Positions 7,474 to 46,972 are shown, counted from the stretch's first letter. The stretch is 64,000 nt of DNA from Flavobacteriaceae bacterium (GCA_965221765.1 OZ244911.1:567100-631099), one strand, 5' to 3'. The notes: generated by a model from the sequence alone, not told the origin. Numbers and translations are program-made.

Positions 7474-8885
7474 AGAGACCTTTGAATAATGCAAAATCAA
7501 AAAAAATGGGGTGTGATGGGGAAATTATTTTTTCTTTTCAGCCATTGAGTCTCTCATTCGATGTGATTTTCTTCCAAAAAATCACGCTATTTTTCTGATT
7601 TTGGCCTCTTTGGCTCCTTTTTCCCCTCATGGTTGAGCCGAATACGGCTTTGAGAACTTCTTTTTCGATCATCTCCCTTTTTAAGTTGGCATGAGAGCCA
7701 TCATACTCGGTGATCTCTTTCAATGCTAGGCCATCGACTCCAAAATAGGTTGATGATGGACTTTTTCCAGTCCCTTGAGTCGGGTCACTTGACCCTAGAA
7801 CCAGCGAGCCAAACCACCAACGGTCTGTTCCACCACCCAAGGTTCTTTACTGATGGGGTTGTTTCGTTCTTTCTGTGGCTCGGTCAAGGGCTTGTGACCA
7901 TAGCCCTTTTCCATCACTAAGGATGCACTCCCCATGGCCTCTAAGAGCTGGGCATTTTCTTTTGATGGGTCCCCTTTATCGGCCAAGACTCGTTGTCGTT
8001 CTTCGACCCAAAGGCCTTCCATCAAAGGCTGGAGACCTCTGGACGGTCCTGTTCATTGGCAGCCACCGTATGCACCCCCCCCCCTAAAATCAAGCCTTTT
8101 TCGGTCGTGGCCATGGGCCGTTTATACCCATCGTACGTCTTTTTTCTTTTTTTAAACCAACGGGCTTCATGGTCGGCGTTGGGACGGTCTTCCTGTTTTT
8201 CTTCATCATAACTCTGTTCAGCTTGAAGTTCTGACTCTTCACGCTGGTCTTCTTTTGGGTCTTGAGTCATTTTTTTGGGTTGACTTTTGGGGGTGAAGGG
8301 ACCGGTGGTGATGCAGGCATCCACCACCGCCCTGCCTTGAATGATCACGGCCTTTTGGGTGAGTTGTCCATGGACTTGCTCCATGATCTTTTGATAGCGC
8401 TTTTTGGCCGTCAACGCCGAACGAAAGCCAGACCGCCTGCTGTAATCGGGGACGGCATCTTCCCTATCTAAACCACAAAAAGCCGTGAAACGGATGCGGT
8501 CTTTAATGAACTCTTGGGTTCGAACATCCCAGAGGTGGAACCCGACAGAGAGGAGTGGCCTATTCAACAAAATCATCGGATGATCAGCCTTTTGGCCTCG
8601 TTGTTTTTTGCCCAATGTATCGTTTTCAACCCATAAAGCCTCCAGGGGCTCCCAATCGATCAGGTCATGGACTTGATTGAACAACGGTGGGGTCGTTGTG
8701 CGACTCCGCCCTTGATGGAGATTCAAAAAACGCATGGGGTTGGATTCATACGATTTGAAGTGATTCATCACGCGTACCATAGACCAAAAAAAAATGATAA
8801 AAACCAATGGTCAAATAAAAAAAAGAGATTTCGACCCAAACCCTTTATCTTAGCAAAAAACCGAAATTTTAGGGCAAAGGTCTCT
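7474..8885 (-). mobile_element. IS5-family insertion sequence with a decayed transposase, compositionally foreign (GC-rich)
   Basis: An 11-bp inverted repeat, AGAGACCTTTG at 7474..7484 and CAAAGGTCTCT at 8875..8885, brackets the transposase fragments. TAT is present immediately outside both ends, a possible 3-bp target duplication. The interior is clearly more GC-rich than the flanks. Confidence 0.55.
7538..8807 (-). pseudogene. IS5-family (DUF772 + DDE) transposase, split over three frames
   Basis: 8022..8807 has an N-terminal DUF772-like part (IRFTAFCGLDREDAVPDYSRRSGFRSAL) and the start of the DDE domain (ILGGGVHTVAANEQD). 7795..8025 continues with VLADKGDPSKENAQLLEAMG...KPLTEPQKERNNPISKEPWVVEQTVGGLARWF. 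The C-terminal end is in a third frame (7538..7840). Confidence 0.65.
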
Positions 8886-17885: not shown

Positions 17886-18237
17886 TTATGAAAAATACTT
17901 GAGAGTTCGGTTTTTATCTTCCATGGATTTGTCTCCCTTGTAATATAATTCTATAAACGTTATTGTGTTTTCTTTTTTATCAAATGCATAAATAAGGCTC
18001 ATGCCTGAATTAATTCCTTTCGATTTAATACTCCTTATAGGCGAATTTCTTTCGTTTAATGATAACTGTTGATATCCCCAAGCCACCTATTCTAAAACTC
18101 CATGGAGGCTTTTCATTTGGATTCTCTTGCAATAATTTCTTGATAATTCCCAAATCTTCGGAGAGAGATTTAAATCGTCTTTTGGATAATTTCCTTAACT
18201 CTTTTTCAAACTCATCCAATGAGTCAAAATTCATCAT
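17886..18237 (-). pseudogene. RelE/ParE-superfamily-like toxin, frameshifted; cognate of the upstream Panacea antitoxin
   Basis: Two overlapping ORFs, 18025..18237 and 17886..18086. The first ends KRKKFAYKEY*. The second continues in another frame with SIKSKGINSGMSLIYAFDKKENTITFIELYYKGDKSMED. Removing one G at the AAGG near 18033..18036 would join them into about 117 aa. The 5' end overlaps the antitoxin gene by 14 nt. Confidence 0.5.
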
Positions 18238-18778
18238 TTATATCATACTCCCGAACGGTATACGGCTCTTCTCTATAAAATGCTAATTCATAATCTATAA
18301 CTTCATTAGGTTCGGTTACCCTCCAAGGAATATCATTGTGCGAATACTCGCTAATGTCTTTCGCTGATTTGTTTAATAATTGATCCATCACATTATCGAT
18401 GACTTTTTTCTCTCTTTGATGGAGTATTTTTAAACTTGGTGTTATGCAAGGAATGTATTTAATCCTAGGGAAATCCACAACTTGAATGGCCTTTTCTAAT
18501 ACCAAATTTGATTTTTTAAGCTCATCCAAGATTTGATTGAAATGTTTTGGCACAGGCCCATGTTCAAACTTAAGATATGTTTCTCCTATCATCTGCTCTT
18601 CATATGGTTCATAATGATTGAAATCTGAATAATATAAAAGTTTACAAATCATCGTTTTTCCTACATTAGGTTTGTCTTTACAAGAGTAGATGATATAAAA
18701 TAAAACCTCTTTAAACTTCTCTATATTTAATTTAGGTTCTGAAATCCTTTCTTGATATTCACTTAAAGATTTCATCAT
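18224..18778 (-). CDS. Panacea / SocA-like (DUF4065) antitoxin-domain protein
   Basis: KLLYYSDFNHYEPYEEQMIGETYLKFEHGPVP is the characteristic DUF4065 core. It lies upstream of, and overlaps, a small toxin-like gene. Confidence 0.7.
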   Translation of the reverse strand: MMKSLSEYQERISEPKLNIEKFKEVLFYIIYSCKDKPNVGKTMICKLLYYSDFNHYEPYEEQMIGETYLKFEHGPVPKHFNQILDELKKSNLVLEKAIQVVDFPRIKYIPCITPSLKILHQREKKVIDNVMDQLLNKSAKDISEYSHNDIPWRVTEPNEVIDYELAFYREEPYTVREYDINDEF

Positions 18779-19004: not shown

Positions 19005-20581
19005 TTGAAAATCCCCATAATTGATCTTTTTGCTGGACCTGGAGGTTTGGGTGAGGGATTTTCCAAATTTGAGCATGAAGGTAATGGCGGTTTCGATGTT
19101 GCATTATCTATTGAAAATGAATCGAATGCTCACAAAACATTAGAACTAAGAAGTTTTTTTCGAAAATTCACTTCTAATCAAGTTCCAAAAGAGTACTACT
19201 CCATCATGCAAGAAAAAGATTTGAAAAAAAGAAGTCAACTAAGACAATCCCTATTTGAAAAATACCCTCAACAAGCTCAAAAAGCTAAGCTCGAGGCTTG
19301 GCAGACAACTTTAGGACAAACCACAATAAAAGAAGTGGATCAAAGAGTGCGTGAAGTATTAGCAGGAAAAGAAAATTGGGTTTTAATTGGAGGGCCTCCC
19401 TGTCAAGCATACTCATTGGCTGCTAGAGGACGACTAAATCCTAAAACAATTGAAGCCGATGAAAGATTGCATCTCTACAAAGAATTTGTAAGAATTGTTG
19501 CGGTGTACAGTCCTTCTGTTTTCCTAATGGAAAATGTCAAAGGGTTATTGTCATCGAAATCAAGAGGAGAAAGAATCTTTCCTAAAATCCTTTCTTATTT
19601 AGAATCTCCAAAGTTACTTTTTAATGTAGGACGCTATTGCTATAAATTGTACTCGTTATGTCAAGAGCAAGAAGATAAAAATAACGTTCATTCTAAATAT
19701 CTCATTAAATCTGAGAATTTTGGTATACCACAAAAAAGACACAGAGTGTTTGTATTGGGAATAAGAGAAGATATTAGCATGAAACCTCGTAATTTAGTGC
19801 AGTCTAAAACGACTGTTAGCGTGTCTGATGTAATTGCTGATTTGCCGATGATAAGAGCTAGTATAAATCGTTCTCTTGTGGTGGATAAGAATAGTTTTGA
19901 TTCAAAAAGAAGACAATACAAAAAAGAAGAAGATAGTTTTCAAAATTGGTTCAAAATAATGAGCACACACTATAAGGATATTAGCGATTACTTGCATATG
20001 GGTAATATTAATAAATTTGCCCCCCCCCATTAAATTCTGGTGCAGAATTTGTAAAAGGTCATACTCCTTCTAAGCTCAATCCCCTTTGTGATTGGTATCG
20101 TGATGAGAACATAAAAGGAGTTTCAAATCACGAGTCGAGATCTCACCTTGTTCAAGATTTAAAACGATATTTATTCTCGGCATTATGGGCCAAAAAACAC
20201 AAAAAGTCGCCAACCCTTTCAGATTATAAAAACACATGCGAGGATTTACTTCCCCACCATAAAAATGCTACATCTGGAAAGTTTTCAGATCGTTTTCGAG
20301 TTCAACTTGAAAATGAACCGGCTTTTACCATAACTAGTCATATTTCTGTGGATGGCCATTACTACATCCATTATGACCCTTTACAATGCCGAAGCTTTAC
20401 GGTCAGAGAAGCTGCGAGAATACAAACCTTCCCTGATAATTACTTGTTCTGTGGAAGCAGAACAGCACAATACAAACAAATCGGTAATGCTGTTCCTCCT
20501 CTACTAGCAAAACAAATAGCCGCAATTGTTTTCAACATATTAAGGCCTATTGGTAGTGATACGAATCAAGAAGAGACTTAA
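19005..20581 (+). pseudogene. dcm: DNA (cytosine-5)-methyltransferase, interrupted by a frameshift inside a C9 tract; possibly phase-variable rather than dead
   Basis: Frame A (19005..20033) has motif I DLFAGPGGLGEGF, motif IV GGPPCQAYS, motif VI ENVKGL and motif VIII QKRHRVFVLG. Frame B is open from 20015 to 20581 and has RSFTVREAARIQTFPDNY and QIGNAVPPLLA (motifs IX/X). The frames switch within C9 at 20020..20028. One extra C gives a continuous 525-aa ORF. TTG start. Confidence 0.85.
20020..20028 (+). repeat. C9 homopolymer at the frame break of the methyltransferase gene
   Basis: Reads aaatttgCCCCCCCCCattaa. The stop codon TAA follows 2 nt downstream in the 5' frame. Confidence 0.9.
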
Positions 20582-20596
20582 AATAACAATGTTAAG

Positions 20597-22072
20597 ATGA
20601 AACATCTCAAAGATTTGGACTATAACGATACACCACCAAATGCTGCAACAATGATTAATTCATTTAGAAGTTTCGGTTATGATTTAAAAACAGCAATAGC
20701 AGATGTAGTTGATAACAGTATTTCGGCATTGGCAAAAAACATATGGATTGATTACAAGTGGAAAGGGGGTAGTTCATGGGTTACCATTACAGATGATGGT
20801 TATGGAATGGATGGAAAAACATTAATTGAAGCCATGAGACCAGGTAGTAAAAACCCTCTTGATGAACGCGATGAAAAAGACTTGGGACGCTTTGGTCTTG
20901 GATTGAAAACATCTTCTTTTTCACAATGCAAATGCTTAACGGTTGTCGCTAAAAAACTCGGATATAATCTAATCAAACGACATTGGGATTTGGATTATGT
21001 TAATGACTCAGGAATATGGCGAATACACGATTATTTATCTGAAGATTATTTCACTCATCGACTTCAAAAGCTTGAAAGTGGAACAACAGTCATATGGGAG
21101 AAAATGGATCTGCTTTTAGGAGGATTAAGCATTAAAACTGAGAATGAAACCGCAATGAAGGCTTTTCTAAAAGAATTTGAAGAGGTTGAAAACCATCTCA
21201 GTTTAGTATTTCATCGCTATATCGATAGAAAGAAGCTAAATATTTGGATTAATGATCACAAGATAAAGGCATGGGATCCATTTATGAAAGAGGCTGACGG
21301 AACACAGAAAATTGCAGAAGAAAAATTAGATAACAGGCAAATACAGATTAGATGTTATGTGATTCCTCATAGTTCCAAAATAAGGGAAGAAGATTATAAG
21401 GAAACAAGAATAAATCAATGGTATGATTTGCAGGGGTTTTATATCTACAGAAATAATCGGCTTTTACTTTATGGAGATTGGTTAAAACTCTTCCCTAAAA
21501 AAGAATATTTTAAAAATGCTCGAATTCTTGTTGATATCCCAAACACCTTGGATAGTCATTGGAAAATTGATATCAAAAAAGCAAAAGCAACTCCACCAGT
21601 AACAGTTCGAAGTGATTTAAAAAGATTGGGGCTATTGACTCGGAAGCATGCTGCTAAAGTCCATCAGTTTAGAGAGTTCATCCCCCCTTATAGACCTCAT
21701 TTAAAGTTCCAATCCGTATGGCATGCCATTAGAAATAGGGACGGCATCATGCAATACAAGATTAATACAAGGCACACTATAATCGAAAACCTATTGAATA
21801 GGAACCAAATAAGCAAACGTGATTTTATAAAAGTGTTGTATCTCGTGGCACAAACCATACCCATTGAATCTATCATTCAATCTTATGATGAATATCCAAA
21901 TCATCATGATTGTATTCTTCACAAAGAATTAGAGCTTAAGACAATTGAATTTGCTAAAGATCTTTTTGAAACCTTGCTTTCTAGGGGGGAAACAAAAGAA
22001 AAAGCGAAACAAGAGATTTTAAGACTTGAACCATTCAACAACTATCCTCAACTAGAAAAGTACTTGGTGTGA
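20597..22072 (+). CDS. GHKL-superfamily ATPase (HATPase_c_3 / prokaryotic MORC-like)
   Basis: Bergerat-fold motifs in order: N-box DVVDNSISA, G1 box TDDGYGMD, G2 box GRFGLGLKTSSF. 491 aa. The start is 15 nt after the dcm stop. Confidence 0.8.
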   Translation: MKHLKDLDYNDTPPNAATMINSFRSFGYDLKTAIADVVDNSISALAKNIWIDYKWKGGSSWVTITDDGYGMDGKTLIEAMRPGSKNPLDERDEKDLGRFGLGLKTSSFSQCKCLTVVAKKLGYNLIKRHWDLDYVNDSGIWRIHDYLSEDYFTHRLQKLESGTTVIWEKMDLLLGGLSIKTENETAMKAFLKEFEEVENHLSLVFHRYIDRKKLNIWINDHKIKAWDPFMKEADGTQKIAEEKLDNRQIQIRCYVIPHSSKIREEDYKETRINQWYDLQGFYIYRNNRLLLYGDWLKLFPKKEYFKNARILVDIPNTLDSHWKIDIKKAKATPPVTVRSDLKRLGLLTRKHAAKVHQFREFIPPYRPHLKFQSVWHAIRNRDGIMQYKINTRHTIIENLLNRNQISKRDFIKVLYLVAQTIPIESIIQSYDEYPNHHDCILHKELELKTIEFAKDLFETLLSRGETKEKAKQEILRLEPFNNYPQLEKYLV

Positions 22073-24849
22073 TGACCTCCGATTACCATAAAGCTATCAG
22101 TATATGCCTCACAATTTTGGAAGGTCCTTCAAGTAGCCCATCCTATGAAAAAATAAAAAGTACCGCTACAGATCCATTAATCCTAAAAAAATATCCAAAT
22201 GTTGATTCAAATGAACTTGTGGCCGAACTACAGAGTATTTTTAAAATTGAATACTTTGATTCAAAAGAATTAGTAAGACGAGATATTAAACCTTGGATTA
22301 GAGAAATGAAATCTTCGATTGAGTGGGAGTTATGGAATCGATATACAAAACATCTCAAAAATGAGAATCCAACTTTCCCAATCCACAAACTTGATGATTA
22401 TACCGATAGAATTTTAGATAAATGTATCAATCCCAAAGAGAAAGGCCCTTGGGATTCTAGAGGAATGGTTGTTGGAAATGTTCAATCCGGAAAAACCGCA
22501 AATTATATCGGTCTCATAAATAAAGCAACTGATGCGGGTTATAAAATGATTATCGTGATTGCAGGGGTTCAAAATACTCTTAGAGCTCAAACTCAACTTC
22601 GAATTGACCAAGGTTATATTGGAAGGGATAGTGCGGAGTATATAGAAAAACGCAGAAGAAAAGTCATTGGAGTCGGAAAATTTACAGCTAAAAAAGTTAT
22701 TTATTCCTACACTTCTTCCGTTTCAAATGGGGACTTCAATAAAAATATAGCAATGAGATTGAATGTCCCAATTCATGGTGAAAGCCCGACCGTCGTTGTC
22801 ATTAAGAAAAACAAATCCATTCTTGAAAATTTAATTCTTTGGCTTGAAGGATTTGTTCAAGCCAATGAGCATGTTGATCCGAAAATAGCAGACGTTCCTT
22901 TATTGGTCATCGACGATGAAGCTGACAATGCATCCGTTAATTCAGGGACACAGTTGGATGTGAAGACGATAAATCGCTTGATACGAACACTTTTGAATTT
23001 ATTTACCCAAAGTTGCTACATAGGTTATACTGCTACCCCCTATGCGAACTTATTTATCCCTTCAGATTGGAGTAATGATCTCAGAACAAATATCAATGGA
23101 AGTAACTTACTAGTTGGGGAAGATTTATTTCCTCGTGATTTCATCATTAACATTCCCGCTCCTTCAAACCATATTGGAGGCCCTCAATTGTTTGGATTGA
23201 GACATACGCATCTAGGTGAAGATTCTGAAGGATTAAATTTAATCCGTACGGTAAATGATAGTAGCCCACACTTTCCACAAAAAATTAATAAGGAGAATGA
23301 AAAAAACCTCCCCAATGAACTTCCATTATCACTTAAAGAAGCGATACAAACTTTTATTCTGACGTGTGCCATTAGACGTGTGAGAAATCAAAAAGAAAGT
23401 CACAATTCAATGCTTATCCATGTCTCACTTCGTGTTCAATGGATTGATAGAATATCTTTCTTAGTCAATGAAACGGTTCGAGATTATGTTCGACAGATCA
23501 AGTCAAAACAAGGTGGCCTTTTACGAAAAATGAAATGTTTATACGAACAAGATTTTATCAAAACCACTGAGTCTGTAATAGAAAACATGAGCTATGAGGA
23601 CAAAAGAATTAAAAAACATAACTGGGCTCAAGTACAGCAAGAATTATATCCTGCTGCATCCAAAATTGATGTGAGAGCCGTTCATGGAGAAAAGAGAATT
23701 AAAAATTTAGAATATGATGGGGTACAAGAAATCAATTATCGCGACTATGAAAAAGGGCTGTCTATCATTACAGTTGGTGGAAATAAACTCTCAAGGGGCA
23801 TCACTTTGGAGGGACTCTCGGTGAGTTATTTCTTGAGGACAAGTCGAATGTATGATTCCTTGATGCAAATGGGGAGATGGTTTGGGTATCGACCTGGATA
23901 TGTTGATTTATGTCGCCTTTATACTACCGATACTTTGGCAAATTGGTTTCGCCATATTACTCTAGCTACTGAGGAAATGAAAAACGATTTTGATGAAATG
24001 GCTTTAAACAATAAAAGTCCAAAAGATTTTCAACTTAAAGTGAAAAAACATCCAGGGATGCTAAGCATCACCTCCATTTCAAAGATGAGAGGGCATGAAA
24101 CTTTAAAAGTTGGTTTTTCGGGTAAAACAATTCAAACTCATGAATTTTTAAATTCTGCTAAAATGGTTGAAGCCAATTATGAGGTATTTAAAGATTTTAT
24201 TTCCAATTTAAATACCCCCGAAACAAAAAAAACAAAAAGTGGAGCAGTCAATGCATTGCTTTGGAGGGATGTAAGTGTGGACTTAATTCAAAAGTTTTTA
24301 AATAAATACCAATCACCATTAACCCTCAGAAAAAAACAACTAAGTGATTACATACAAAAACAAAACAAAAATGGCAATCTAAAATCCTGGCCAGTGGCGT
24401 TAATCTTAACTTCAAAAAAACAAGCAATGTTTAAAAAGAAAAATAAACTTTTCTCAACTCAAAAAGTTTTATTTGAATGGAATGGCGGTGAAGAAAATGG
24501 TGGAATTCCATATCGAAAATTGTGTAGAAGTAACGGCAAGTTATCTGTTAAAGGGAATAAAAACGCCATTTTAGGGCCTAATGACCGAAAGATTGATCTA
24601 TACGTTGATGCTAAAAAAGAAAGCCAAATGACCGAAATAAGAAAAAGATTAAAACAACCACTACTTGCCATTTTACCAATTGACTCTCGAATCAGCGAAA
24701 ACCTCAACTCGAAAATTCCAATCATCGGTTTTGGACTGATTTTTCCTCAACTAGAAGATGAAGAAGTTGTGGAATATGCGGCTAGGCCTTTTGAAGATTA
24801 CGATAACAACCTTCAAGAAGATGACGATAGAGCTGAATATGAAAATTAA
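22069..24849 (+). CDS. Z1-domain protein (SF2 helicase-like ATPase with a C-terminal Z1 domain)
   Basis: Walker A GNVQSGKTANY, Walker B/DEAD-like LLVIDDEADNAS, and a C-terminal Z1-type block GGNKLSRGITLEGLSVSYFLRTSRMYDSLMQMGRWFGYRPGY. The start (GTG 22069 or ATG 22072) overlaps the upstream stop codon. Confidence 0.8.
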   Translation: MMTSDYHKAISICLTILEGPSSSPSYEKIKSTATDPLILKKYPNVDSNELVAELQSIFKIEYFDSKELVRRDIKPWIREMKSSIEWELWNRYTKHLKNENPTFPIHKLDDYTDRILDKCINPKEKGPWDSRGMVVGNVQSGKTANYIGLINKATDAGYKMIIVIAGVQNTLRAQTQLRIDQGYIGRDSAEYIEKRRRKVIGVGKFTAKKVIYSYTSSVSNGDFNKNIAMRLNVPIHGESPTVVVIKKNKSILENLILWLEGFVQANEHVDPKIADVPLLVIDDEADNASVNSGTQLDVKTINRLIRTLLNLFTQSCYIGYTATPYANLFIPSDWSNDLRTNINGSNLLVGEDLFPRDFIINIPAPSNHIGGPQLFGLRHTHLGEDSEGLNLIRTVNDSSPHFPQKINKENEKNLPNELPLSLKEAIQTFILTCAIRRVRNQKESHNSMLIHVSLRVQWIDRISFLVNETVRDYVRQIKSKQGGLLRKMKCLYEQDFIKTTESVIENMSYEDKRIKKHNWAQVQQELYPAASKIDVRAVHGEKRIKNLEYDGVQEINYRDYEKGLSIITVGGNKLSRGITLEGLSVSYFLRTSRMYDSLMQMGRWFGYRPGYVDLCRLYTTDTLANWFRHITLATEEMKNDFDEMALNNKSPKDFQLKVKKHPGMLSITSISKMRGHETLKVGFSGKTIQTHEFLNSAKMVEANYEVFKDFISNLNTPETKKTKSGAVNALLWRDVSVDLIQKFLNKYQSPLTLRKKQLSDYIQKQNKNGNLKSWPVALILTSKKQAMFKKKNKLFSTQKVLFEWNGGEENGGIPYRKLCRSNGKLSVKGNKNAILGPNDRKIDLYVDAKKESQMTEIRKRLKQPLLAILPIDSRISENLNSKIPIIGFGLIFPQLEDEEVVEYAARPFEDYDNNLQEDDDRAEYEN

Positions 24850-25852
24850 TCTCAATGACATTTGGTCTCGACTAGAATCTCAGACCGATAAAAATGTGCC
24901 AAAACAGCATGTAAAATCAGTTGGACAAATGCAATGTTTTATCGGTTTTGTTGGTCATACCAATAGTAAACTGTTTCAATGTGACATTCCGAAAGAAGTT
25001 CAAAGTGAAGCCGACAATCAGAGAAAATTTAGAGGAGTGGATATGTACACCATATCCAAACATGATTCTAAGCAAAGAAGTTTTATTATTCTTTTAGCTG
25101 AAGAAGCTCTAGAAGGAGTTTTTACACTTTTTATCGAAGATTTACTCAAAAGACTTGATTCAGTTGGAGATGATGAAAGTAAGGGATTTGTTGCTATAAA
25201 TAAGAGAATCGACTATTGGCAACGGTTATTTGAAAAAGTGCCTAATGGACTACTGTCTAGAGAAAAGCAAAGAGGTCTTTATGGAGAGTTATATGTCTTA
25301 AAAACATTGCTCAATGAAGGAAAAAATCCTGAAAAAGCAATCAAAAGCTGGGTTGGGGCTGAAGGATTAAGACAAGATTTTTTATTTGAAAATAACGCTT
25401 TAGAAATTAAGACTCAATTGATAGCTAGCACATCAATATCCATATCCAATGAATTTCAACTCGACTACACCGTGTTAGAAAATCTCTATTTGTCTGTTAT
25501 CCTTCTCAATGAGTCCAAGGGAAATGAAAATACGATTTATCAAATCATCTATGAAATTCAAGAACTATTAGTGCATGATTTTGAGTTGATGGATGAGTTT
25601 AAACAAAAACTTGCGTTTTTGGGAATTACAGAAAAAACAGCGTTTAATCATTATAATCAAACAAATTTCTCAGTAAAACAAACAACTTACTATAAAATCG
25701 ATGATGGATTTCCTTTGCTTATTAATCCCCTCATTAACAATGATGCAATCTATAGTGTAAGATACAAAATACATAATAGTAGCTGTGCTCAATTCAAAAT
25801 AGATAAAGACCTAGCATTGGCATTTCTTGATAATTATAAATCAGTACAATGA
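24839..25852 (+). CDS. PD-(D/E)XK-motif protein (DUF4420-like predicted nuclease)
   Basis: GLYGELYVLK ... RQDFLFENNALEIKTQ matches an E ... D ... ExK restriction-endonuclease-fold core. The preferred start is MKINLND at 24839, an 11-nt overlap with the Z1 gene. The track ORF starts at 24758 and would overlap by 92 nt. Confidence 0.6.
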   Translation: MKINLNDIWSRLESQTDKNVPKQHVKSVGQMQCFIGFVGHTNSKLFQCDIPKEVQSEADNQRKFRGVDMYTISKHDSKQRSFIILLAEEALEGVFTLFIEDLLKRLDSVGDDESKGFVAINKRIDYWQRLFEKVPNGLLSREKQRGLYGELYVLKTLLNEGKNPEKAIKSWVGAEGLRQDFLFENNALEIKTQLIASTSISISNEFQLDYTVLENLYLSVILLNESKGNENTIYQIIYEIQELLVHDFELMDEFKQKLAFLGITEKTAFNHYNQTNFSVKQTTYYKIDDGFPLLINPLINNDAIYSVRYKIHNSSCAQFKIDKDLALAFLDNYKSVQ

Positions 25853-28266
25853 AGCATATCGATTTCGAACTCGCTAAGTTTCAAAAAGAAATACACCACG
25901 AAGTGAATTCACGGGCTTCTTCTGCCGAAGAGGGAGCGACTAAAGAAGGGGTTTTTTCAGAATATATTTTGGAATTTCTGAGTGAAGCTGAGGAAACGAG
26001 TGCAACGAGAATTTGTTACTACGAAAGAGAAAATAGATGGGAAAACATAGAATGTAAAATCAACGGATATGCTGTTGAAGAGGGCTTTGATGGGAAGGCT
26101 TACGATGGTGTGGGGTACGAAACCATAGATTTATTTATTACTTATTACAAGGAAAGTTTAGAGCCTTTTCATTTACTTAAACCTGAATTTGAAAACTTGA
26201 TTAAATGGCCTTCTTGTTTTCTTGGAGATTCCTTAAGAGGACATTTGACCGATGAAATAGAAGAATCAAATGAAGCTTATGGACTATCCAAATTAATTCG
26301 AGATTCTCGTAAAGAACTCTCACGCGCAAATATCTTTATCCTTTCTAATGGAATTATTAGACATGATCCGCCAACAAATTTCGCAATTAAGGGATTTGAA
26401 GATTTAAATATCATTTTTCACGTTTGGGATATTGAGCGTTTGCTACGACTTTCGCAATCAAAATACAACCGAGAGCCTATAGAAATAGATTTTTTAAAGG
26501 ATATGCAAGTGAAGATTCCTTGTCTCCAAATGCCTTTAAAAAATGATTTATATGAATGTTATTTGGCAATTATGACAGGCAGTGTTTTGTCTAATCTATA
26601 TCACAATTACGGATCAAGATTGCTTGAAAGCAATGTAAGAGCTTTTTTACAACAAAGAGGAAAAATCAATCGAGGAATACGAGACACCATTTTACGCGAG
26701 CCAGAAATGTTTTTAACTTATAATAATGGTTTAGCAACTAGTGCTCAAGAGGTTAAAACAGAAAAAGGGGATAATGGTCAACTATACATCACTAGAATAA
26801 AAGATTTTCAAATAGTCAACGGCGGGCAAACGACAGCTTCTCTTTTTTATACCTATAAGAATTACAAGGATAAGGCCGACTTATCTAAAGTGCTTGTGCA
26901 ATTAAAACTCACGGTCATTAAAGATGAAGAGAAGAAAAATGAGATGGTCCCCAAAATAGCAAGATACGCCAATAGTCAAAATAAAGTTTCTGAACTAGAC
27001 CTCTCTTCAAACAATCCGTTTCTTCAGCGGCTTGAGGAGTTGTCTAAGACTACATATGCTCAAAATACTGATGATCCAAACAAACTGACCCTTTGGTTTT
27101 TTGAAAGAGTTCGAGGCCAATATCAAGAAGAGCTCAATAAGCGCCCCACAAGAAGTACTGAAAATGCTTTTAAAATGAAATTTCCTAGACATCAAATCAT
27201 CATTAAATCCGAGGTTGCCAAGTTTATGAATATTTGGAAACTTTATCCCTATGAAGTTTCGAGAGGGAGTCAAAAAAATTACATAACATTCATGAAAGGA
27301 GTTGAAAAGGAATTTTCAAGCAGAAAAAAACCTGGACGTGTTTATTGGGAAGATTTAGTTGCCAACGCGATTATATTCAAAACAGCAGATAAATTATTTG
27401 GAAGGAAAAATAAAAATCCAATTGGAGATACATTAATCAAGTCATATACTGTTACGTATACGTTGTCTTTTTTACATCATCTAACAAATAATTTGATAGA
27501 TCTTGAATTGATATGGAAAAAACAAACTCTTGAAGAAGATTTTCAAGAAGAGATTAAAAAAGGATTGAAATACGTATATGACTTCTTTGAGTCATTGAAT
27601 GCGCCATTAGTTTCTGAAGCTGCAAAAAGGAAGGAGACATGGAATAAACTAATCAAAATAATCGATGGTCATGGTCATCCATTTGATATGCGCGTGCTTA
27701 GTAAATATTTTACTACCAAAGAAAAGAAAATACAAAGAAATGATTTAGATAAAAACCATTCAGTCAAGCCCAAGAGTTTTGATAACTTAGAAACAATTTA
27801 CTCCCTAGGAACTAAATTTTGGGATGGCTTAGGCACTTTTAATGTTCGTGAGAAATATTTATCAGATTTCAAAGAAAACATAGTGAAAAGTATTTCTGAA
27901 AAATATAATTCCCGAAAGAGTTTGACGCCGACTGAAATAAGACATGGGATAAATATTATCAACACATTAAATAAAAAAAACATAGATTTTGAAAGTATTA
28001 GAGATTTAAGCAAAATTGAAAATGACCAAGTAATTGATCTTTCTAAGATTTACTATAAGTTGTTTTTAATCTCTGATGCCGAATGGGAAGATAAAATAGA
28101 ACTTGGAATGCAAACACAAAAACTAAATGATAATGAAATCAGCACCATGAAGGCCGTTCAATTGAAATTAAAGAGAGAAGGTTCTAAAGAAGTAGTCATT
28201 GACTTTGAACGATTGCAGATTGTATATGATTCCCTGCAAAAATTAGAAAGATATAGAAAAGTATAG
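25849..28266 (+). CDS. AIPR (abortive-infection phage-resistance-like) family protein
   Basis: Central block NVRAFLQQRGKINRGIRDTILREPEMFLTYNNGLATSA ... QIVNGGQTTASL is typical of AIPR proteins as I remember them. 805 aa. ATGA overlap with the upstream gene. Confidence 0.7.
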   Translation: MKHIDFELAKFQKEIHHEVNSRASSAEEGATKEGVFSEYILEFLSEAEETSATRICYYERENRWENIECKINGYAVEEGFDGKAYDGVGYETIDLFITYYKESLEPFHLLKPEFENLIKWPSCFLGDSLRGHLTDEIEESNEAYGLSKLIRDSRKELSRANIFILSNGIIRHDPPTNFAIKGFEDLNIIFHVWDIERLLRLSQSKYNREPIEIDFLKDMQVKIPCLQMPLKNDLYECYLAIMTGSVLSNLYHNYGSRLLESNVRAFLQQRGKINRGIRDTILREPEMFLTYNNGLATSAQEVKTEKGDNGQLYITRIKDFQIVNGGQTTASLFYTYKNYKDKADLSKVLVQLKLTVIKDEEKKNEMVPKIARYANSQNKVSELDLSSNNPFLQRLEELSKTTYAQNTDDPNKLTLWFFERVRGQYQEELNKRPTRSTENAFKMKFPRHQIIIKSEVAKFMNIWKLYPYEVSRGSQKNYITFMKGVEKEFSSRKKPGRVYWEDLVANAIIFKTADKLFGRKNKNPIGDTLIKSYTVTYTLSFLHHLTNNLIDLELIWKKQTLEEDFQEEIKKGLKYVYDFFESLNAPLVSEAAKRKETWNKLIKIIDGHGHPFDMRVLSKYFTTKEKKIQRNDLDKNHSVKPKSFDNLETIYSLGTKFWDGLGTFNVREKYLSDFKENIVKSISEKYNSRKSLTPTEIRHGINIINTLNKKNIDFESIRDLSKIENDQVIDLSKIYYKLFLISDAEWEDKIELGMQTQKLNDNEISTMKAVQLKLKREGSKEVVIDFERLQIVYDSLQKLERYRKV

Positions 28267-28323
28267 TTGGTCTTTGGTTTAGGCTTCTTTGTATAAGGGG
28301 GGGGGTAAAAGAAACATAACGAG

Positions 28324-31300
28324 TTATAAATCTTCAATGTCAATATCAAATAGCTTTAGGGTTTGATGGAAACGTTCTGATATTTGACTTTGGAAATCAG
28401 TAGTATCATTAGCCTCGATCATATCAACTATATTATTATACTGCGCAAGAATATCCGTTAGTTGATTGAGGTATAACTCAAAACTTTCGTCAGGAATACG
28501 CGTATAGACTTCGGCTCTAGAAGCATATTGTTGTGTAATTTTAAGTGCCGTTTCTTGAGCTTTTTGGATGGCCCCACTTTGGTAATAGGCATCTACAAAT
28601 TCGGACATAGGCGTATAGAATTCATATTCTCCATAGAGGTCCGTAAATGGGGTAGTGCTTTGAATAAATTGATCTATATATACTTCGTATTTCTCAATAT
28701 CTGCATTCTCAAAAATTGTTCTCAAAGCGGTTCGATATCTTTCGATTTCAGTTAAAATTTCTGAAAGAATCATATTCTGTCGATTAAACGATAACGAACT
28801 GAAATAAGCCAATCGATCCATATATTTTTCAGAAACTGTTTCAAATAAATCTCTAGCCCTTTGGGGGTTATCAATTTTATAAAAGGTGTCAATAAAGGGA
28901 TGTAACAAGGAATAATAGCCAAAAAAATCAATAGGCATTTTTTCTAATGCCAATTGAATCACCTCTTGGGCCTTATCAAATTTTTCTTCTTTTACCAACT
29001 GATTAGCAAGACGTGCAATATGACTTCTATAAGTGATGCTATTCTTACGCGTTTCAGGATCATGATAAATATTGGGGTCTTCTGAATTTCCCCATTGCCA
29101 TTGCGTGACAATGGAATACATTTTTTCTGAATCGATTTTCCCCATTAAATAGGGATTGGATGGATCTAATGGTGTTTTAATAGGAACTAATTTATACACC
29201 ATTCCTTCTAATTCAAGATACTCTTTCATCCAAATGTACTCAGAAGCTTCAAAACTTCCTCCGGTAAAATAAATAGGTCTTTTCCAATCATTATTAGCCA
29301 AAATATCCAACATCATGACTTGATTTTTAGTTAATCCTGAAGTTGGTAGATCAATATCGATATGTGAAACAATTTTAGATTCATTTTCAGGCCTAACAAT
29401 TCCATATTTTAAAACATTTTCTTTATTGATAGGAACCCGTATTTTATTGGTTGGATAGTAAATCATTTCTTGCTGACTCAATGGTAGGTATGAAAAATCG
29501 GACTCCATTTCCTCTAATATATGACGGTATCTAGTTTTAGGATGATCACTTGATATCCAATTGACAAAGTCTTTGATATCCCAACGGATGGTATCATTAA
29601 CCGGATGAAATCGAACATATTCTCGAGTTCCATAGGCATATTGTTTATGGTTCAATTGAGAAGGGATTGGGTTGCTTTCATAAGTTTTCCTTTTCATTTG
29701 ATCTATATACCAATAGGTAGCTAGTAATGACGTATTGATGGTTCGAACATCGGTTCGGATGCCTTCAATTTCTTGAGCATACCAAAGTGAAAAAGTATCA
29801 TTATCACCAATAGTAAATATCATGGTTCCCGCATCTTCTTGAAGTGATTTTAAATAGGTTTTAGACATCGACTGGGCCGTATAACGATTGGATCGATCAT
29901 GATCATCCCAATTTTCAGCAAACATCAACAAAGGCACACACAGTAGCGCCACCAAGACCATCAAAGGTCGCATCAAATGTGGTTTGAAACGTTGCCAAAG
30001 CTTGGTCAAGTAGTAAGTCCCTAGGCTAATACCAATGGAAAATACATAAAACGATCCCACCAAGGCATAATCACGTTCTCGAGGTTCAAAAGGACGTTCA
30101 TTTAAATAAACCTTGAGCGCCAAGCCTGTAAATAAAAATAAAATCAAGAGCTTCCAAAAGGTTTTTTTATCTTGATTATAGAGAAAAATAAAGCCTAAAA
30201 CCCCAAACAGAAGCGGTAAAAAATAATACGTATTGCGTGCTTTGTTGTTTAAGGTATCTTGATCTAGAGCCGACTGATTTCCTAGTCTTACTTTATCTAT
30301 AAATGGAATTCCACTAATCCAATTCCCATTCAAAATAGAATAGTCTCCTTGTATATCGTTTTGACGTCCTGTAAAATTCCACATAAAATAACGCCAATAC
30401 ATATATCCCATTTGAAAATTGAGCAGAAAGGCGAGATTATCAATCAGTGTGGGTTTTGATATCTCCAAATACCTTCCGTAAGATCTGAAAAACTCATCAT
30501 AATCTTCTCCTGTCAATAATCCTTGTTGCCCTCGAAGCTGAAAGTCACTAATAATATTTCGTAATTGTTGACTAGCTCCATATTCGGGTAATATTGAAAA
30601 ATCTAGTGGGCCAATAAAGTTCATATAGTTGGCCGCGTTCTGTGTGCTCCAAAGTCTTGGAAGCAGTCCTTTGTGGTCTGAATGGCTATTGATTCGAGCC
30701 CCTTGCCAATTATTGACCACCACATACTTCCTATTTTCGTTATCTTTTTCATACTTGGGTTTATCATCTCGAAATGGTTTAATCGGATCTTGACCCGCGT
30801 ACATATCCGAGAACATAGGGCCATAAAATAGATACGTATCTGGATACTGTTCCATTCGATAGTAGGCTAAAAGAGTTCTTGCATCAGAAGGGTCATTTTG
30901 GTTGATCACCGTATTGGCATTGGCTCTAATTGGAAGCATCATCCATGAAGAAAACCCAATGAATAGAAATAAAACACACAAAAAGGCTGTATTCAAATGC
31001 ACCCAATTTCTTTTTGCTGTCAAACGAAGAGATAACACAAAAATCAATACAATCAGTAGGCCGGCAAAAATGGTTCCACTATTAAAAGGGAGCCCCAAAG
31101 TATTGACAAAAAACACTTCAGTTTCTCCAAAAAAAGCTAATGTATTGGGTAGTAATAATTTGAATATGAATAATAAGATGGCAATGGATATTACATTGGC
31201 TAGTAAAAATCCTTTGACCGTGGTTCTCGAAAAATTTCTAAAATAATAGACCATTCCTATGGTGGGAATTGCTAATAGAGCCATAAAATGGACCCCAAAT

Positions 31301-31863
31301 GAAAAACCAATCACAAGCGACATCAATACCAACCATTGATGCCCTTTTGGCTTGAACATATCTTTCTCCCAACGCAATGCTAACCAAAACAAGATGGCTA
31401 GAAAACACATGGCCATGGCATACACTTCTGCTTCAACAGCATTAAACCAAAAACTATCCGAAAAACAAAATGCTAAGGATCCGACAGTAGCACTCCCCCA
31501 AAAAGAGATTTTTGACGCTATACTTTTTAAAGACGTAAAAGCAGATAATTTTCTAAGCAGAATGGTAGTTGTCCAAAACATAAAAAGTATAGTAAAAGCA
31601 CTTGAAATGACCGACATAAAGTTGACCATGAGAGCAACTTTTTCTGGACTTGAAGCAAAGGTTGCAAAAAAAGCACCTACCATCTGAAAAAATGGAGCCC
31701 CTGGAGGATGTCCTACTTGGAGTTTTGCTGAAGTAGAAATATATTCACTAGCATCCCAAAAACTTGAAGTGGGTTCAACAGTAGAACCAAATGTAATTAG
31801 AGCAATAATGAAAATACACCAACCCCAGATATTATTCCAACGTTTGTAACTATTTTCATCCAT
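28324..31863 (-). CDS. DUF2723-domain polytopic membrane protein (PMT/GT-C-like glycosyltransferase fold) with a large C-terminal domain
   Basis: N-terminal SFWDASEYISTSAKLQVGHPPGAPFFQMVGAFF signature, many TM helices, and a TPR-like helical tail. 1179 aa. Confidence 0.75.
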   Translation of the reverse strand: MDENSYKRWNNIWGWCIFIIALITFGSTVEPTSSFWDASEYISTSAKLQVGHPPGAPFFQMVGAFFATFASSPEKVALMVNFMSVISSAFTILFMFWTTTILLRKLSAFTSLKSIASKISFWGSATVGSLAFCFSDSFWFNAVEAEVYAMAMCFLAILFWLALRWEKDMFKPKGHQWLVLMSLVIGFSFGVHFMALLAIPTIGMVYYFRNFSRTTVKGFLLANVISIAILLFIFKLLLPNTLAFFGETEVFFVNTLGLPFNSGTIFAGLLIVLIFVLSLRLTAKRNWVHLNTAFLCVLFLFIGFSSWMMLPIRANANTVINQNDPSDARTLLAYYRMEQYPDTYLFYGPMFSDMYAGQDPIKPFRDDKPKYEKDNENRKYVVVNNWQGARINSHSDHKGLLPRLWSTQNAANYMNFIGPLDFSILPEYGASQQLRNIISDFQLRGQQGLLTGEDYDEFFRSYGRYLEISKPTLIDNLAFLLNFQMGYMYWRYFMWNFTGRQNDIQGDYSILNGNWISGIPFIDKVRLGNQSALDQDTLNNKARNTYYFLPLLFGVLGFIFLYNQDKKTFWKLLILFLFTGLALKVYLNERPFEPRERDYALVGSFYVFSIGISLGTYYLTKLWQRFKPHLMRPLMVLVALLCVPLLMFAENWDDHDRSNRYTAQSMSKTYLKSLQEDAGTMIFTIGDNDTFSLWYAQEIEGIRTDVRTINTSLLATYWYIDQMKRKTYESNPIPSQLNHKQYAYGTREYVRFHPVNDTIRWDIKDFVNWISSDHPKTRYRHILEEMESDFSYLPLSQQEMIYYPTNKIRVPINKENVLKYGIVRPENESKIVSHIDIDLPTSGLTKNQVMMLDILANNDWKRPIYFTGGSFEASEYIWMKEYLELEGMVYKLVPIKTPLDPSNPYLMGKIDSEKMYSIVTQWQWGNSEDPNIYHDPETRKNSITYRSHIARLANQLVKEEKFDKAQEVIQLALEKMPIDFFGYYSLLHPFIDTFYKIDNPQRARDLFETVSEKYMDRLAYFSSLSFNRQNMILSEILTEIERYRTALRTIFENADIEKYEVYIDQFIQSTTPFTDLYGEYEFYTPMSEFVDAYYQSGAIQKAQETALKITQQYASRAEVYTRIPDESFELYLNQLTDILAQYNNIVDMIEANDTTDFQSQISERFHQTLKLFDIDIEDL

Positions 31864-38792: not shown

Positions 38793-38801
38793 GGGGGGGG
38801 G
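38793..38801 (+). repeat. G9 homopolymer beginning with the G of the ATG start codon
   Basis: Reads ataaaatGGGGGGGGGctgtagcc. The current reading is MGGGCSPRWPMPTLFLR followed by a stop. Confidence 0.9.
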
Positions 38802-40104
38802 CTGTAGCCCTCGGTGGCCTATGCCTACTCTTTTCCTGCGGTAAGACCGATTCGTCCGAACCCACTCCTAGTCTGCCGTCGACTCCCCCCACCTATACCA
38901 TCACCACCACTGCCACCATAGGCGGCACCATCACCCCCACCCAAACCGTCCCCCATGGCCAAACCATCACCGTGACCCTCACCCTACAACCCCATTATCA
39001 ACTCCAGCAGTGGCAAAGCGATTGTGGGTCGTTCGACCCACAACAAAACACCCTAGAACTCCTAGTCCAAAAAGACTGTACCATCACCGCCCGACTCACC
39101 CTCGATACCCCTTTGTATCTCGATACCAATGGGCTCACCATCCGAAGCCGACCCCAAGGAGAACGATTCATCGGACAAACCAAGCTCCTGGCCCACCCAG
39201 AACACCCAGAGCCCCTAGCCATCCGCATCGTGGATCAAACCGCCCTACGAACCCTCATCCAACAACAAGACTGGTCGGCCCTCGAAACCATCAATACCAC
39301 CTTTGTTACCAATCTGCGCAATCTCTTCCGGAGCCAAGACACCTTTAATGCCGATATCCGCTCGTGGGATGTCAGCAACGTCACCACCATGCAAAAACTC
39401 TTCCAGGGAGCCACCGCTTTCCAACAAGATCTCAGCCAGTGGACCGTCTCACAAGTGACCGATTGCCATCAGTTTGCTCAACAGAGTGCCTTCACCCCCG
39501 ATGGGTGGCCTCGCTTTACCGCTTGTGATTTACAAGAAATCGAAGAAACCAGAGATTGCCATGGCATCCCCACCCCCATTGATCAACCCTGTCCTAGTCG
39601 CCCACAGCCCCAGACCAAAGAGTGCAACCGACAGCAGATTCCCGTGGATGAAGATTGTCTAGCGAGACCCGCCACCAAAACCTGTTGGGATGGTTCGGTG
39701 ATTCCTCGCTCTCAAAATTGTCCGATGCAAACCAAAGATTGCCATGGCAATCAAATCCCCGCTGGCGATACTTGTCCGCCCTTGCTAAAAAAAGCTACCA
39801 ATGGGGTCACGGTCATCATCAATCCCGTGCTGCAAAACCCTGCCCAATACGTGGGACGAAAAGCTACCCTCGATGGAACCCAGTATACCATCGTGAATAA
39901 TGCCTCGCTCAAAGCATGGGCAGCGGCTGATCATACCAATGCCGTGTGTACCACCCTGGTGACCGATATGACAAATCTATTTTCTAATAAAACTAACTTT
40001 AATCAAGATATTGGGGATTGGGATGTCAGTAATGTCACCGATATGACTGGTATGTTCACTGATGCTAGAGCCTTTAATCGAGATATTGGGGATTGGGATA
40101 CGGG

Positions 40105-40270
40105 TAGCGTGACTAGTATGGTTGGCATGTTTCAATTGACTAGAGCCTTCAATCGAGATATTAGTGCTTGGGATGTGAGTAATGTCAAAAATATGGATGG
40201 CATGTTTCAATTGACTAGAGCCTTCAATCGAGATATTAGTGCTTGGGATGTGAGTAGCGTGACTAGTATG
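40105..40270 (+). repeat. Near-identical 75-bp-period tandem duplication inside the DUF285 repeat region
   Basis: The 58-nt string ggcatgtttcaattgactagagccttcaatcgagatattagtgcttgggatgtgagta occurs identically at 40124..40181 and 40199..40256. agcgtgactagtatg also recurs (about 40107 and 40257). Confidence 0.85.
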
Positions 40271-40995
40271 AAGCTTATGTTTTTTCGAGCCACGTCTTTC
40301 AATCAAGATATCAGTCGCTGGATCGTCAGTGGCGTTACCAGTTGCAATAATATTTTTCTTAATTCAGTCTTAATTCCATCACGCCGTCCTTCGTTTAATA
40401 ATTGCGAACCATAATTGATGAATCAATAGACCATGATTTTTAAGCCTTTTTGAAATATTTTTATTCGATAAGTGGAAAGCATATGTCGGATGGGCTAAAG
40501 CGTATGTAATCCATGATTGATTCCACTTAGATTAAGTACTTCATCTATCGACACCGTGGGACAAATAAAAATCACGAATCATCCTAAAAAATGGCCTTTT
40601 GCTCTCTTAGAAGAATCCAGAGAGCAGAACCGAAAAACAAAACCTCATCCTCCAAGCGATTCAAAAAACCAATCGATAAGTCAGCAAAGCTTGGAAATGT
40701 CGTGGCTATTTTCAATACCAAAGGTACCCAATGTGCCAAAGATTGGGTTTTGGTTTGGTGACCCGATGGCTAGGTGGGCAAGATATTTTTAACCCATCGA
40801 CACTATCATCACGGCACTATCCTTTAAACAATAGAACCACAGAGTATAGCGGGTCCATGGAAAAATCCAACAAATCAAAACAGTCGCAAGGAGCTATCGA
40901 ACGTTTGAAAACCTTTAATCGGCTGTCCTATTTTTCTCTAGTCGGTTCAATCTCAATCTACCCATATGGGAATAGAATCCAAGATTTTATCCTCT

Positions 40996-46776: not shown

Positions 46777-46972
46777 GTGAGGTAAGAAAAAAAGATGATG
46801 TGGATTAGTTTATACTCTATTCTTTCCAAACCGAAACACCCCCCCCCCACAAATCTTTAATCCCTCCATCGCTAGATGATACTAGTAATAACTCTCATGG
46901 GTGTTTGCTCTATATAGGCTATGTTCTACTCATGTCCCGTCATGATTTTTTACTTTCGTATTTTGATGGTAA

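Follow-up and report, generated by a model that had tools for sequence, protein, structure and literature searches.

A poly-C tract as the probable on/off switch of the DNA methyltransferase gene in a Dcm-linked, Mza-like operon of an uncultured Flavobacteriaceae lineage

In a 64,000-nucleotide (nt) stretch of a Flavobacteriaceae bacterium genome (GCA_965221765.1 OZ244911.1:567100-631099; hereafter the window, whose numbering is used unless a locus is named), five close-packed genes on the + strand at 19005-28266 encode a 5-methylcytosine (m5C) DNA methyltransferase (Dcm), a GHKL ATPase, a superfamily 2 (SF2) ATPase with a Z1 domain, a DUF4420 protein and an AIPR family protein. Together they form a real five-gene operon of the Mza-like type, in its Dcm-linked form, with a predicted role in anti-phage defence. 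The dcm gene is broken by a frameshift in a run of nine cytosines, and it is most likely a phase-variable methylase gene in a lineage rich in G/C tracts. What is new here is probably this poly-C on/off switch, located in the dcm of a family that is itself already known. We assign a probability of roughly 60% to the reading that the operon is a nuclease-based system of the Mza family in which Dcm marks self DNA, that dcm is governed by the poly-C tract and that the whole operon varies in phase as one package through polarity.

The initial annotation had described dcm (19005-20581) as one open reading frame (ORF) and had treated its break as a defect to be repaired. The gene starts with a TTG codon at 19005 and its N-terminal ORF (19005-20033, 342 amino acids (aa)) carries motifs I-VIII, ending at a stop two codons past a C9 tract at 20020-20028. 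The remainder, carrying motifs IX-X, lies in another frame at 20030-20581. This frame is open over 20021-20581 and has its first start codon at 20348, which gives a second ORF piece at 20348-20581. A single frameshift in the tract breaks the gene, and a C10 allele yields one intact Dcm of 525 aa; no further frameshifts are present within the operon in the window. The two pieces were also considered as a natural split methylase, which is what M.AquI is, and this candidate was rejected since a product beginning at 20348 would miss about 105 residues of the variable region.

The same locus was recovered from other assemblies by exact-protein look-up. For the window species this gave contig ctg10120 (1.46 Mb, 11x; loci L001/L085) and a 2x contig (L083); for a sister species, a Flavobacteriaceae metagenome-assembled genome (MAG), it gave the loci L084, L087, L088, L089 and L090. 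In the window species the tract is C9 in the window and in L083 and C10 in L001/L085. In the sister species, the operon occupies the same chromosomal site (between metallophosphoesterase/Panacea genes and a TMEM260-like gene) at 88% nucleotide identity, with the tract at the same position, and the tract is C9 in L084, L087, L088 and L090 and C10 in L089. The window and ctg10120 (L001) differ by 9 substitutions and one indel over 21.5 kb, and L087 and L089 by 14 substitutions and one indel over 22.4 kb; in both comparisons the one indel is the dcm tract. Two JGI metagenome scans with patterns for the tract flanks returned no further tract alleles. The OFF alleles stand beside intact copies of the four following genes (B to E, after the Mza proteins that they resemble) in the window, L087, L088 and L090.

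In the ON frame, the 183 dcm codons past the tract contain no stop in either species, and their ratio of nonsynonymous to synonymous substitution rates (dN/dS) between the two is 0.18; it is 0.22 for the part of dcm upstream of the tract and 0.13-0.32 for genes B, C, D and E. The tract encodes Pro-Pro-Pro in the variable target-recognition region, where other Dcm homologues do not conserve it, and of the Pro codons in this genome only 21% are CCC. With independent and identically distributed (iid) bases, 0.014 C runs of at least nine would be expected in the window. The low dN/dS in the ON frame, the non-conserved Pro-Pro-Pro and the codon usage argue against a decaying pseudogene and toward a reversible slipped-strand switch, and with C9 and C10 found in both species the supposed defect is probably a regulated on/off device.

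Phasevarions are known from Haemophilus, Neisseria, Helicobacter and Campylobacter, and the known phase-variable methyltransferases are mostly Type III mod or Type I hsd genes of host-adapted pathogens. The dcm gene described here resembles the phase-variable methyltransferases of restriction-modification (RM) systems in having a homopolymeric G/C tract within the methylase ORF, where one-base changes toggle the frame, and in having both alleles in circulation among near-identical genomes. It differs in belonging to a Mza-like operon, in coming from an environmental Flavobacteriaceae MAG and in being known from allele sequences alone.

Behind dcm the genes are coupled as one same-strand unit, as had been claimed at the outset and as their coordinates and overlaps bear out. 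The gene for the MzaB-like GHKL (MutL/MORC-type) ATPase (20597-22072, 491 aa) begins 15 nt past the dcm stop. The MzaC-like SF2 ATPase gene (22072-24849, 925 aa) can start at ATG 22072, overlapping the GHKL gene by 1 nt, or at GTG 22069, overlapping it by 4 nt. For the MzaD-like predicted nuclease of the PD-(D/E)XK type (DUF4420; 24821-25852, 343 aa) the start of the public gene call is 24821, and 24839 (11-nt overlap with the Z1 gene) and 24758 are further options. The gene for the MzaE-like AIPR family protein (25849-28266, 805 aa) overlaps it by 4 nt, ATGA. A scan for terminator-like sites on the + strand found none inside the five-gene unit, and a sigma-70 promoter scan stayed below shuffle expectation with a tool that does not cover Bacteroidota promoters.

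All five domain assignments made previously from inspection are supported by Pfam, with every call well over the curated threshold: DNA_methylase on both dcm pieces (7e-31 and 5.6e-16), HATPase_c_3 on the GHKL protein (5e-29), Z1 on the Z1 protein (1e-77), DUF4420 on the PD-(D/E)XK protein (3e-60), and AIPR (2e-86) and AIPR_N (8e-32) on the AIPR protein. The intact L001 allele of Dcm also scores 153 bits against TIGR00675 (cut-off 100.65). The diagnostic motifs listed earlier are likewise all present and lie on invariant or near-invariant columns, as judged on alignments of dozens of homologues. The GHKL protein carries D39-N40, D66xGxG70, G97RFGxG102 and K328 (conserved in 77 sequences). In the Z1 protein, Walker A (G135-T142), DDEAD (281-285), TAT (320-322) and QMGRWFGYR (599-607) are invariant in the family alignment, as is the C-terminal stretch D595-S-L-M-Q-M-G-R-W-F-G605 among the aligned homologues. 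The DUF4420 protein has E156, D186 and E195-I-K197, of which E156, D186, E195 and K197, together with P298, are invariant in 35 sequences. In the AIPR protein the motifs are N292-N293-G294 and V323-N324-G325-G326-Q327-T328, and its VNGGQTT stretch may be akin to the DGQQR motif of DUF262/ParB-like NTPases. As far as their sequences tell, the products of B to E are thus homologous over their full length to proteins of a nuclease-based defence system and retain every catalytic motif.

Structural comparison added little to this. For MzaC, MzaD and MzaE, sequence and profile searches of the PDB yielded nothing informative, and for MzaB they yielded a weak match to human MORC4 (9e-4) and no other. 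AlphaFold models of the AIPR protein (mean predicted local distance difference test, pLDDT, 80.9; predicted template modelling score, pTM, 0.45) and of MzaD (pLDDT 81.2, pTM 0.59) had no Foldseek match in the PDB at E <= 0.001. With no structural relative of AIPR, no fold-based mechanism can be derived for it.

The four genes behind dcm match the models of a named system (DefenseFinder 'Gao_Mza', PADLOC 'mza', NCBIfam NF041932-NF041935). PADLOC gives MzaB 1.5e-88, MzaC 1.3e-152, MzaD 4.6e-17 and MzaE 5.1e-80, and the NCBIfam families for 'MZA anti-phage system associated' proteins give 3.3e-106, 8.5e-185, 7.9e-28 and 1.3e-107, respectively. The matches span most of each model, and the four homologues are adjacent, in order and on one strand. 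The NCBIfam bit scores do not reach the equivalog cut-offs (MzaB 355/850, MzaC 616/1500, MzaD 98/420, MzaE 361/1050) and amount to 23-41% of them. No PADLOC match to MzaA was found on any neighbouring ORF of the window, where Dcm holds the first position, nor on 14 ORFs upstream of mzaB in related loci. From the low scores and the missing MzaA, the operon is placed in a divergent, Dcm-linked subfamily that is not an equivalog of enterobacterial Mza.

The mzaABCDE system was named by Gao et al. 2020 and is cited as validated in PMC9523054. The enterobacterial system is described with the sigma-factor-like mzaA as its first gene and with no methylase, and the identity of about 20% reported for this group agrees with the low bit scores found here (PMC9523054). 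Escherichia coli mzaABCDE protects 10^3- to 10^4-fold against T4(C) and T4(hmC), less against glucosylated T4, and does so without growth arrest; purified MzaD cuts DNA in vitro, and D187A and P297A weakened the E. coli protein (preprint 10.1101/2022.06.16.496414). The systems of Salmonella and E. coli are the only ones known to protect against phage on expression (PMC9523054; 10.1101/2022.06.16.496414). The operon in the window shares the GHKL ATPase, Z1 SF2 ATPase, DUF4420 PD-(D/E)XK protein and AIPR protein in identical order, and D186 and P298 of its MzaD lie within one residue number of E. coli D187 and P297, a likeness by numbering only. It differs in lacking MzaA, with the m5C methyltransferase in first position, and in its host, an uncultured Flavobacteriaceae lineage instead of a member of the Enterobacteriaceae.

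The five-gene architecture therefore already has a name, has been characterised in part and has been described more than once. Iyer, Abhiman and Aravind 2008 (PMC2292703) delineated a third type of MORC/paraMORC operon with a GHKL ATPase, a superfamily II (SFII) helicase whose C-terminal domain carries a DThhQXuRhFG motif, and a novel protein of the restriction endonuclease (RE) fold with an E-D-ExK signature, to which cytosine methylases and AIPR are frequently linked. All of these components occur in the window, without architectural difference, and the counterpart of the helicase motif in its Z1 protein is DSLMQMGRWFGYR; that description was purely computational, and the poly-C switch in dcm belongs to the window and not to it. 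Miller, Stern and Burstein 2022 (PMC9523054) proposed a putative 'type II' system with a core of Z1 protein, PD-(D/E)XK protein and cytosine methylase plus AIPR, highly associated with a MORC-family protein and widespread across bacteria. Its core is that of the window (Z1 protein of 925 aa, PD-(D/E)XK protein and cytosine methylase, with AIPR and a MORC-type ATPase). They reported that their systems went undetected by PADLOC or DefenseFinder, whereas the current PADLOC and NCBIfam Mza models do match all four window proteins. The initial annotation was thus right about the kind of system, a methylase-linked defence operon, and right to link it to the GHKL/MORC restriction-like operons of 2008, whose components match. 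It was wrong in taking the system to be uncharacterised and unnamed: with genes two to five matching MzaB-E of a characterised system, that novelty largely falls.

The family is very common. Homology searches with the Z1 and AIPR proteins returned at least ~7,900 relatives each, and a scan of one genome per GTDB species gave at least 588 loci. Gene order was scored in the best 80 of these, with ORFs labelled by phmmer using the window proteins as queries. The complete order Dcm-B-C-D-E on one strand was found in 52 of the 80; five more had dcm past the end of the operon or on the opposite strand, and most of the remainder were cut by contig ends. Most of the 80 loci have dcm immediately upstream on the same strand, where it frequently overlaps mzaB. 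The hosts are Bacteroidota, Cyanobacteria, Chloroflexota, Pseudomonadota, Bacillota, Actinomycetota and Verrucomicrobiota, and also the methanogens Methanosarcina, Methanoregula and Methanocalculus. A tblastn search found homologues on 39 plasmid records, with no enterobacterial record among these matches. Since the order recurs in 52 of 80 loci from many phyla, within Bacteroidota and beyond, the juxtaposition is not due to chance, and the conservation of neighbourhood on which the initial annotation had staked its interpretation does exist.

Some relatives have an additional gene just upstream of mzaB, in several of them between dcm and mzaB. ORFs of about 255 aa were seen in this place in L009, L011, L023, L029, L031, L039 and L050, and the alignment of such ORFs has three further members. 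Among the 14 upstream ORFs scanned, six encode a NOV_C/DUF3883-domain protein and three an HhH-GPD protein, and three of the 14 also match the PADLOC model of a type II nicking endonuclease. The NOV_C/DUF3883 and HhH-GPD proteins seem to be components that a Dcm-linked Mza-like operon may have as an optional sixth.

The tract in dcm is one of six G/C runs of 9-10 nt in the window (at 3869, 8075, 20020, 28297, 38793 and 46839), which has 36% G+C, no G/C run of 8 nt and one of 7; with iid bases, about 0.02 runs of at least nine would be expected. The other 80 loci (~1.4 Mb) hold three G/C runs of at least 8 nt. In ctg10120, the tracts in dcm, in an insertion sequence (IS) transposase gene and upstream of a phosphoglucomutase gene are each one base longer or shorter than in the window, and the other three of the six have the same length. 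G/C tracts are a feature of this lineage and hot spots for indels, and their distribution suggests that they are hypermutable lineage-wide.

In the working model, Dcm would methylate a host-specific cytosine motif and so mark self DNA, MzaC and MzaB would together engage incoming DNA that lacks the mark, as a motor or clamp driven by ATP, and MzaD would cut this DNA; no role is assigned to the AIPR protein MzaE. The literature searched gives no account of the mechanism of Mza or of the role of the methylase in the Dcm-linked form. The hypermutable poly-C tract would govern dcm, C10 giving the full 525-aa enzyme and C9 the stop two codons later. With C9, 564 nt ahead of the packed genes would go untranslated, and polarity might then lower expression of B to E. 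In that case the system would be switched as a whole, rather than restriction being left without its methylase.

Several points weigh against this reading. Six of the eight assemblies carry the OFF allele while B to E are intact in most, which is awkward for the classical model in which a methylase protects self. Function is carried over from E. coli Mza across NCBIfam scores far under the equivalog cut-offs and is to that extent an extrapolation. The persistence of nine cytosines across 12% divergence is weakly improbable (estimated at ~0.15-0.3), and we rejected it as a standalone proof of selection because nine unchanged bases are not improbable enough at 88% identity. The C9/C10 contrast is one between assemblies, and within-population variation and reversibility therefore lie beyond it. 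Finally, a G10 tract (3869-3878) sits in frame in the essential nrdA gene, so genes of the contingency type are not the only ones with such tracts.

That OFF alleles predominate beside intact B-E genes is hard to square with a simple RM model, and leads either to co-silencing of B to E by polarity or to a core that works independently of methylation. Of these two ways out we favour co-silencing. The main rival holds that the MzaB-E core recognises invaders whatever their methylation and that Dcm has another job, such as phasevarion-type epigenetic regulation, protection from other nucleases or fine-tuning of autoimmunity, so that defence would persist with dcm switched off. Enterobacterial Mza, as described, has no methylase, and hence the core may not depend on methylation: canonical mzaABCDE, with its sigma-factor-like MzaA (PMC9523054), works in E. 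coli without growth arrest. The coexistence of OFF dcm with intact B to E in the window, L087, L088 and L090 agrees with this, as do the five of 80 loci in which dcm is downstream or on the opposite strand. In most of the 80 loci, however, dcm lies directly upstream on the same strand and often overlaps mzaB, as expected of an obligate partner, and cytosine methylases are frequently linked to such operons (Iyer et al. 2008, PMC2292703). On balance we think a methylation-independent core unlikely.

A sequencing or polishing error in homopolymer length would make the gene intact in all strains, with nothing switched. The metaMDBG-like contig names of the window species' assemblies (ctgN_Nx_l type) suggest long-read assembly, which is prone to such errors, and an assembler that worked in homopolymer-compressed space; moreover, the 2x contig L083 shows obvious errors in its Z1 gene, and the one-base differences between the window and ctg10120 affect half of the six G/C tracts. 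Set against this, the same C9/C10 split recurs in sister-species assemblies that names (k141_8656, scaffold_5) and the Logan source suggest to be of the short-read type, other long homopolymers, including the in-frame G10 of nrdA, agree between assemblies, and indels outside the tracts are essentially absent. We hold an artefact to be quite improbable. Less credible still is ordinary loss of function in a decaying system, with the operon on its way to a pseudogene cluster. The OFF allele in most assemblies and the splitting of the AIPR gene by a 3.8-kb IS1595 insertion in the sister-species strain L084 would fit decay, but both alleles occur in both species, which would require one site to have mutated repeatedly, the ON frame past the tract is free of stops and shows a dN/dS of 0.18, genes B to E have values of 0.13-0.32 and intact motifs, and the window's operon has no second frameshift.

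A number of observations concern the surroundings of the operon. Encoded on the insertion that splits the AIPR gene in L084 (14980-18812 of that locus; window ~27044-27047) are an IS1595-family transposase, an MTaX1-domain protein and a second DNA methylase, whose gene has a G9 tract of its own close to the 5' end. A target-site duplication is suggested by an overlap of 9 bp where the insertion joins the gene. Besides the tract inside dcm, the sister species has a C9 of unvarying length 144 nt ahead of the start of that gene (L084 6799, L087 3019 and equivalents), for which the window has no equivalent. Synonymous divergence between the window (19005-31863) and L087 is 0.26 in dcm and climbs steadily through B (0.30), C (0.40), D (0.45) and E (0.56) to 0.67 in the flanking TMEM260-like gene, a gradient that recombination at the operon's 5' end may have left behind. 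The AIPR and TMEM260-like genes converge, and the 57 nt that separate them contain the G9 tract at 28297-28305, which is G9 in L001 too and G10 only in the 2x contig L083. On the other side, on the - strand, a SocA/Panacea-domain antitoxin gene (18224-18778, 184 aa) overlaps a 70-aa ORF without family match (the two together 18025-18778). This is probably a PanA-type toxin-antitoxin pair, in line with the pair noted there before; PADLOC and NCBIfam had no match for either of its proteins.

The remaining tracts are found at diverse places. The slippage-prone G10 in nrdA (3009-5447, +) encodes Gly-Gly-Gly in ...DQGGGKRKG... and has the same length in the other strain, an odd placement for a gene encoding the essential large subunit of ribonucleotide reductase. 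An IS-type transposase gene (7538-8807, -) is split into a DUF772 ORF and a DDE ORF, with a C10 at 8075-8084 near the 3' end of the DUF772 ORF that is C9 in the other strain; this may be frameshift control or merely a broken IS. A G9 at 38793-38801, of the same length in the other strain, lies ~180 nt upstream of the gene for a 480-aa DUF285 repeat protein (38972-40414, +), which is a candidate surface protein regulated by a promoter tract. This gene has a G+C content of 52%, far over the genome average, and accounts for the GC-rich stretch at 39-40 kb; Rfam and tRNA scans found no RNA gene in the window, and the stretch is therefore not rRNA. The last tract, a C10 at 46839-46848, is C9 in the near-identical contig and lies ~130 nt upstream of a phosphoglucomutase/phosphomannomutase gene (46973-48691, +).

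The operon itself adds little, as one more example of a very common, named and partly characterised family. Its value lies in the natural experiment that it presents, namely near-identical genomes with the methylase ON or OFF and the four effector genes intact, so that the C9 and C10 alleles offer a direct way to ask whether the Mza-like family works as a restriction-modification system. Poly-G/C contingency tracts are known mainly from host-adapted pathogens. We tentatively propose, at somewhat less than even odds, that an uncultured Flavobacteriaceae lineage uses such tracts, one of them to switch a Mza-like methylase and possibly the whole operon, and that in OFF alleles with intact MzaB-E the core is either co-silenced or independent of methylation. 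If true, either outcome would be a first handle on how Mza discriminates self from non-self. The surplus of 9-10 nt G/C tracts throughout this lineage is also a hint that contingency loci play a part in the biology of environmental Bacteroidota.

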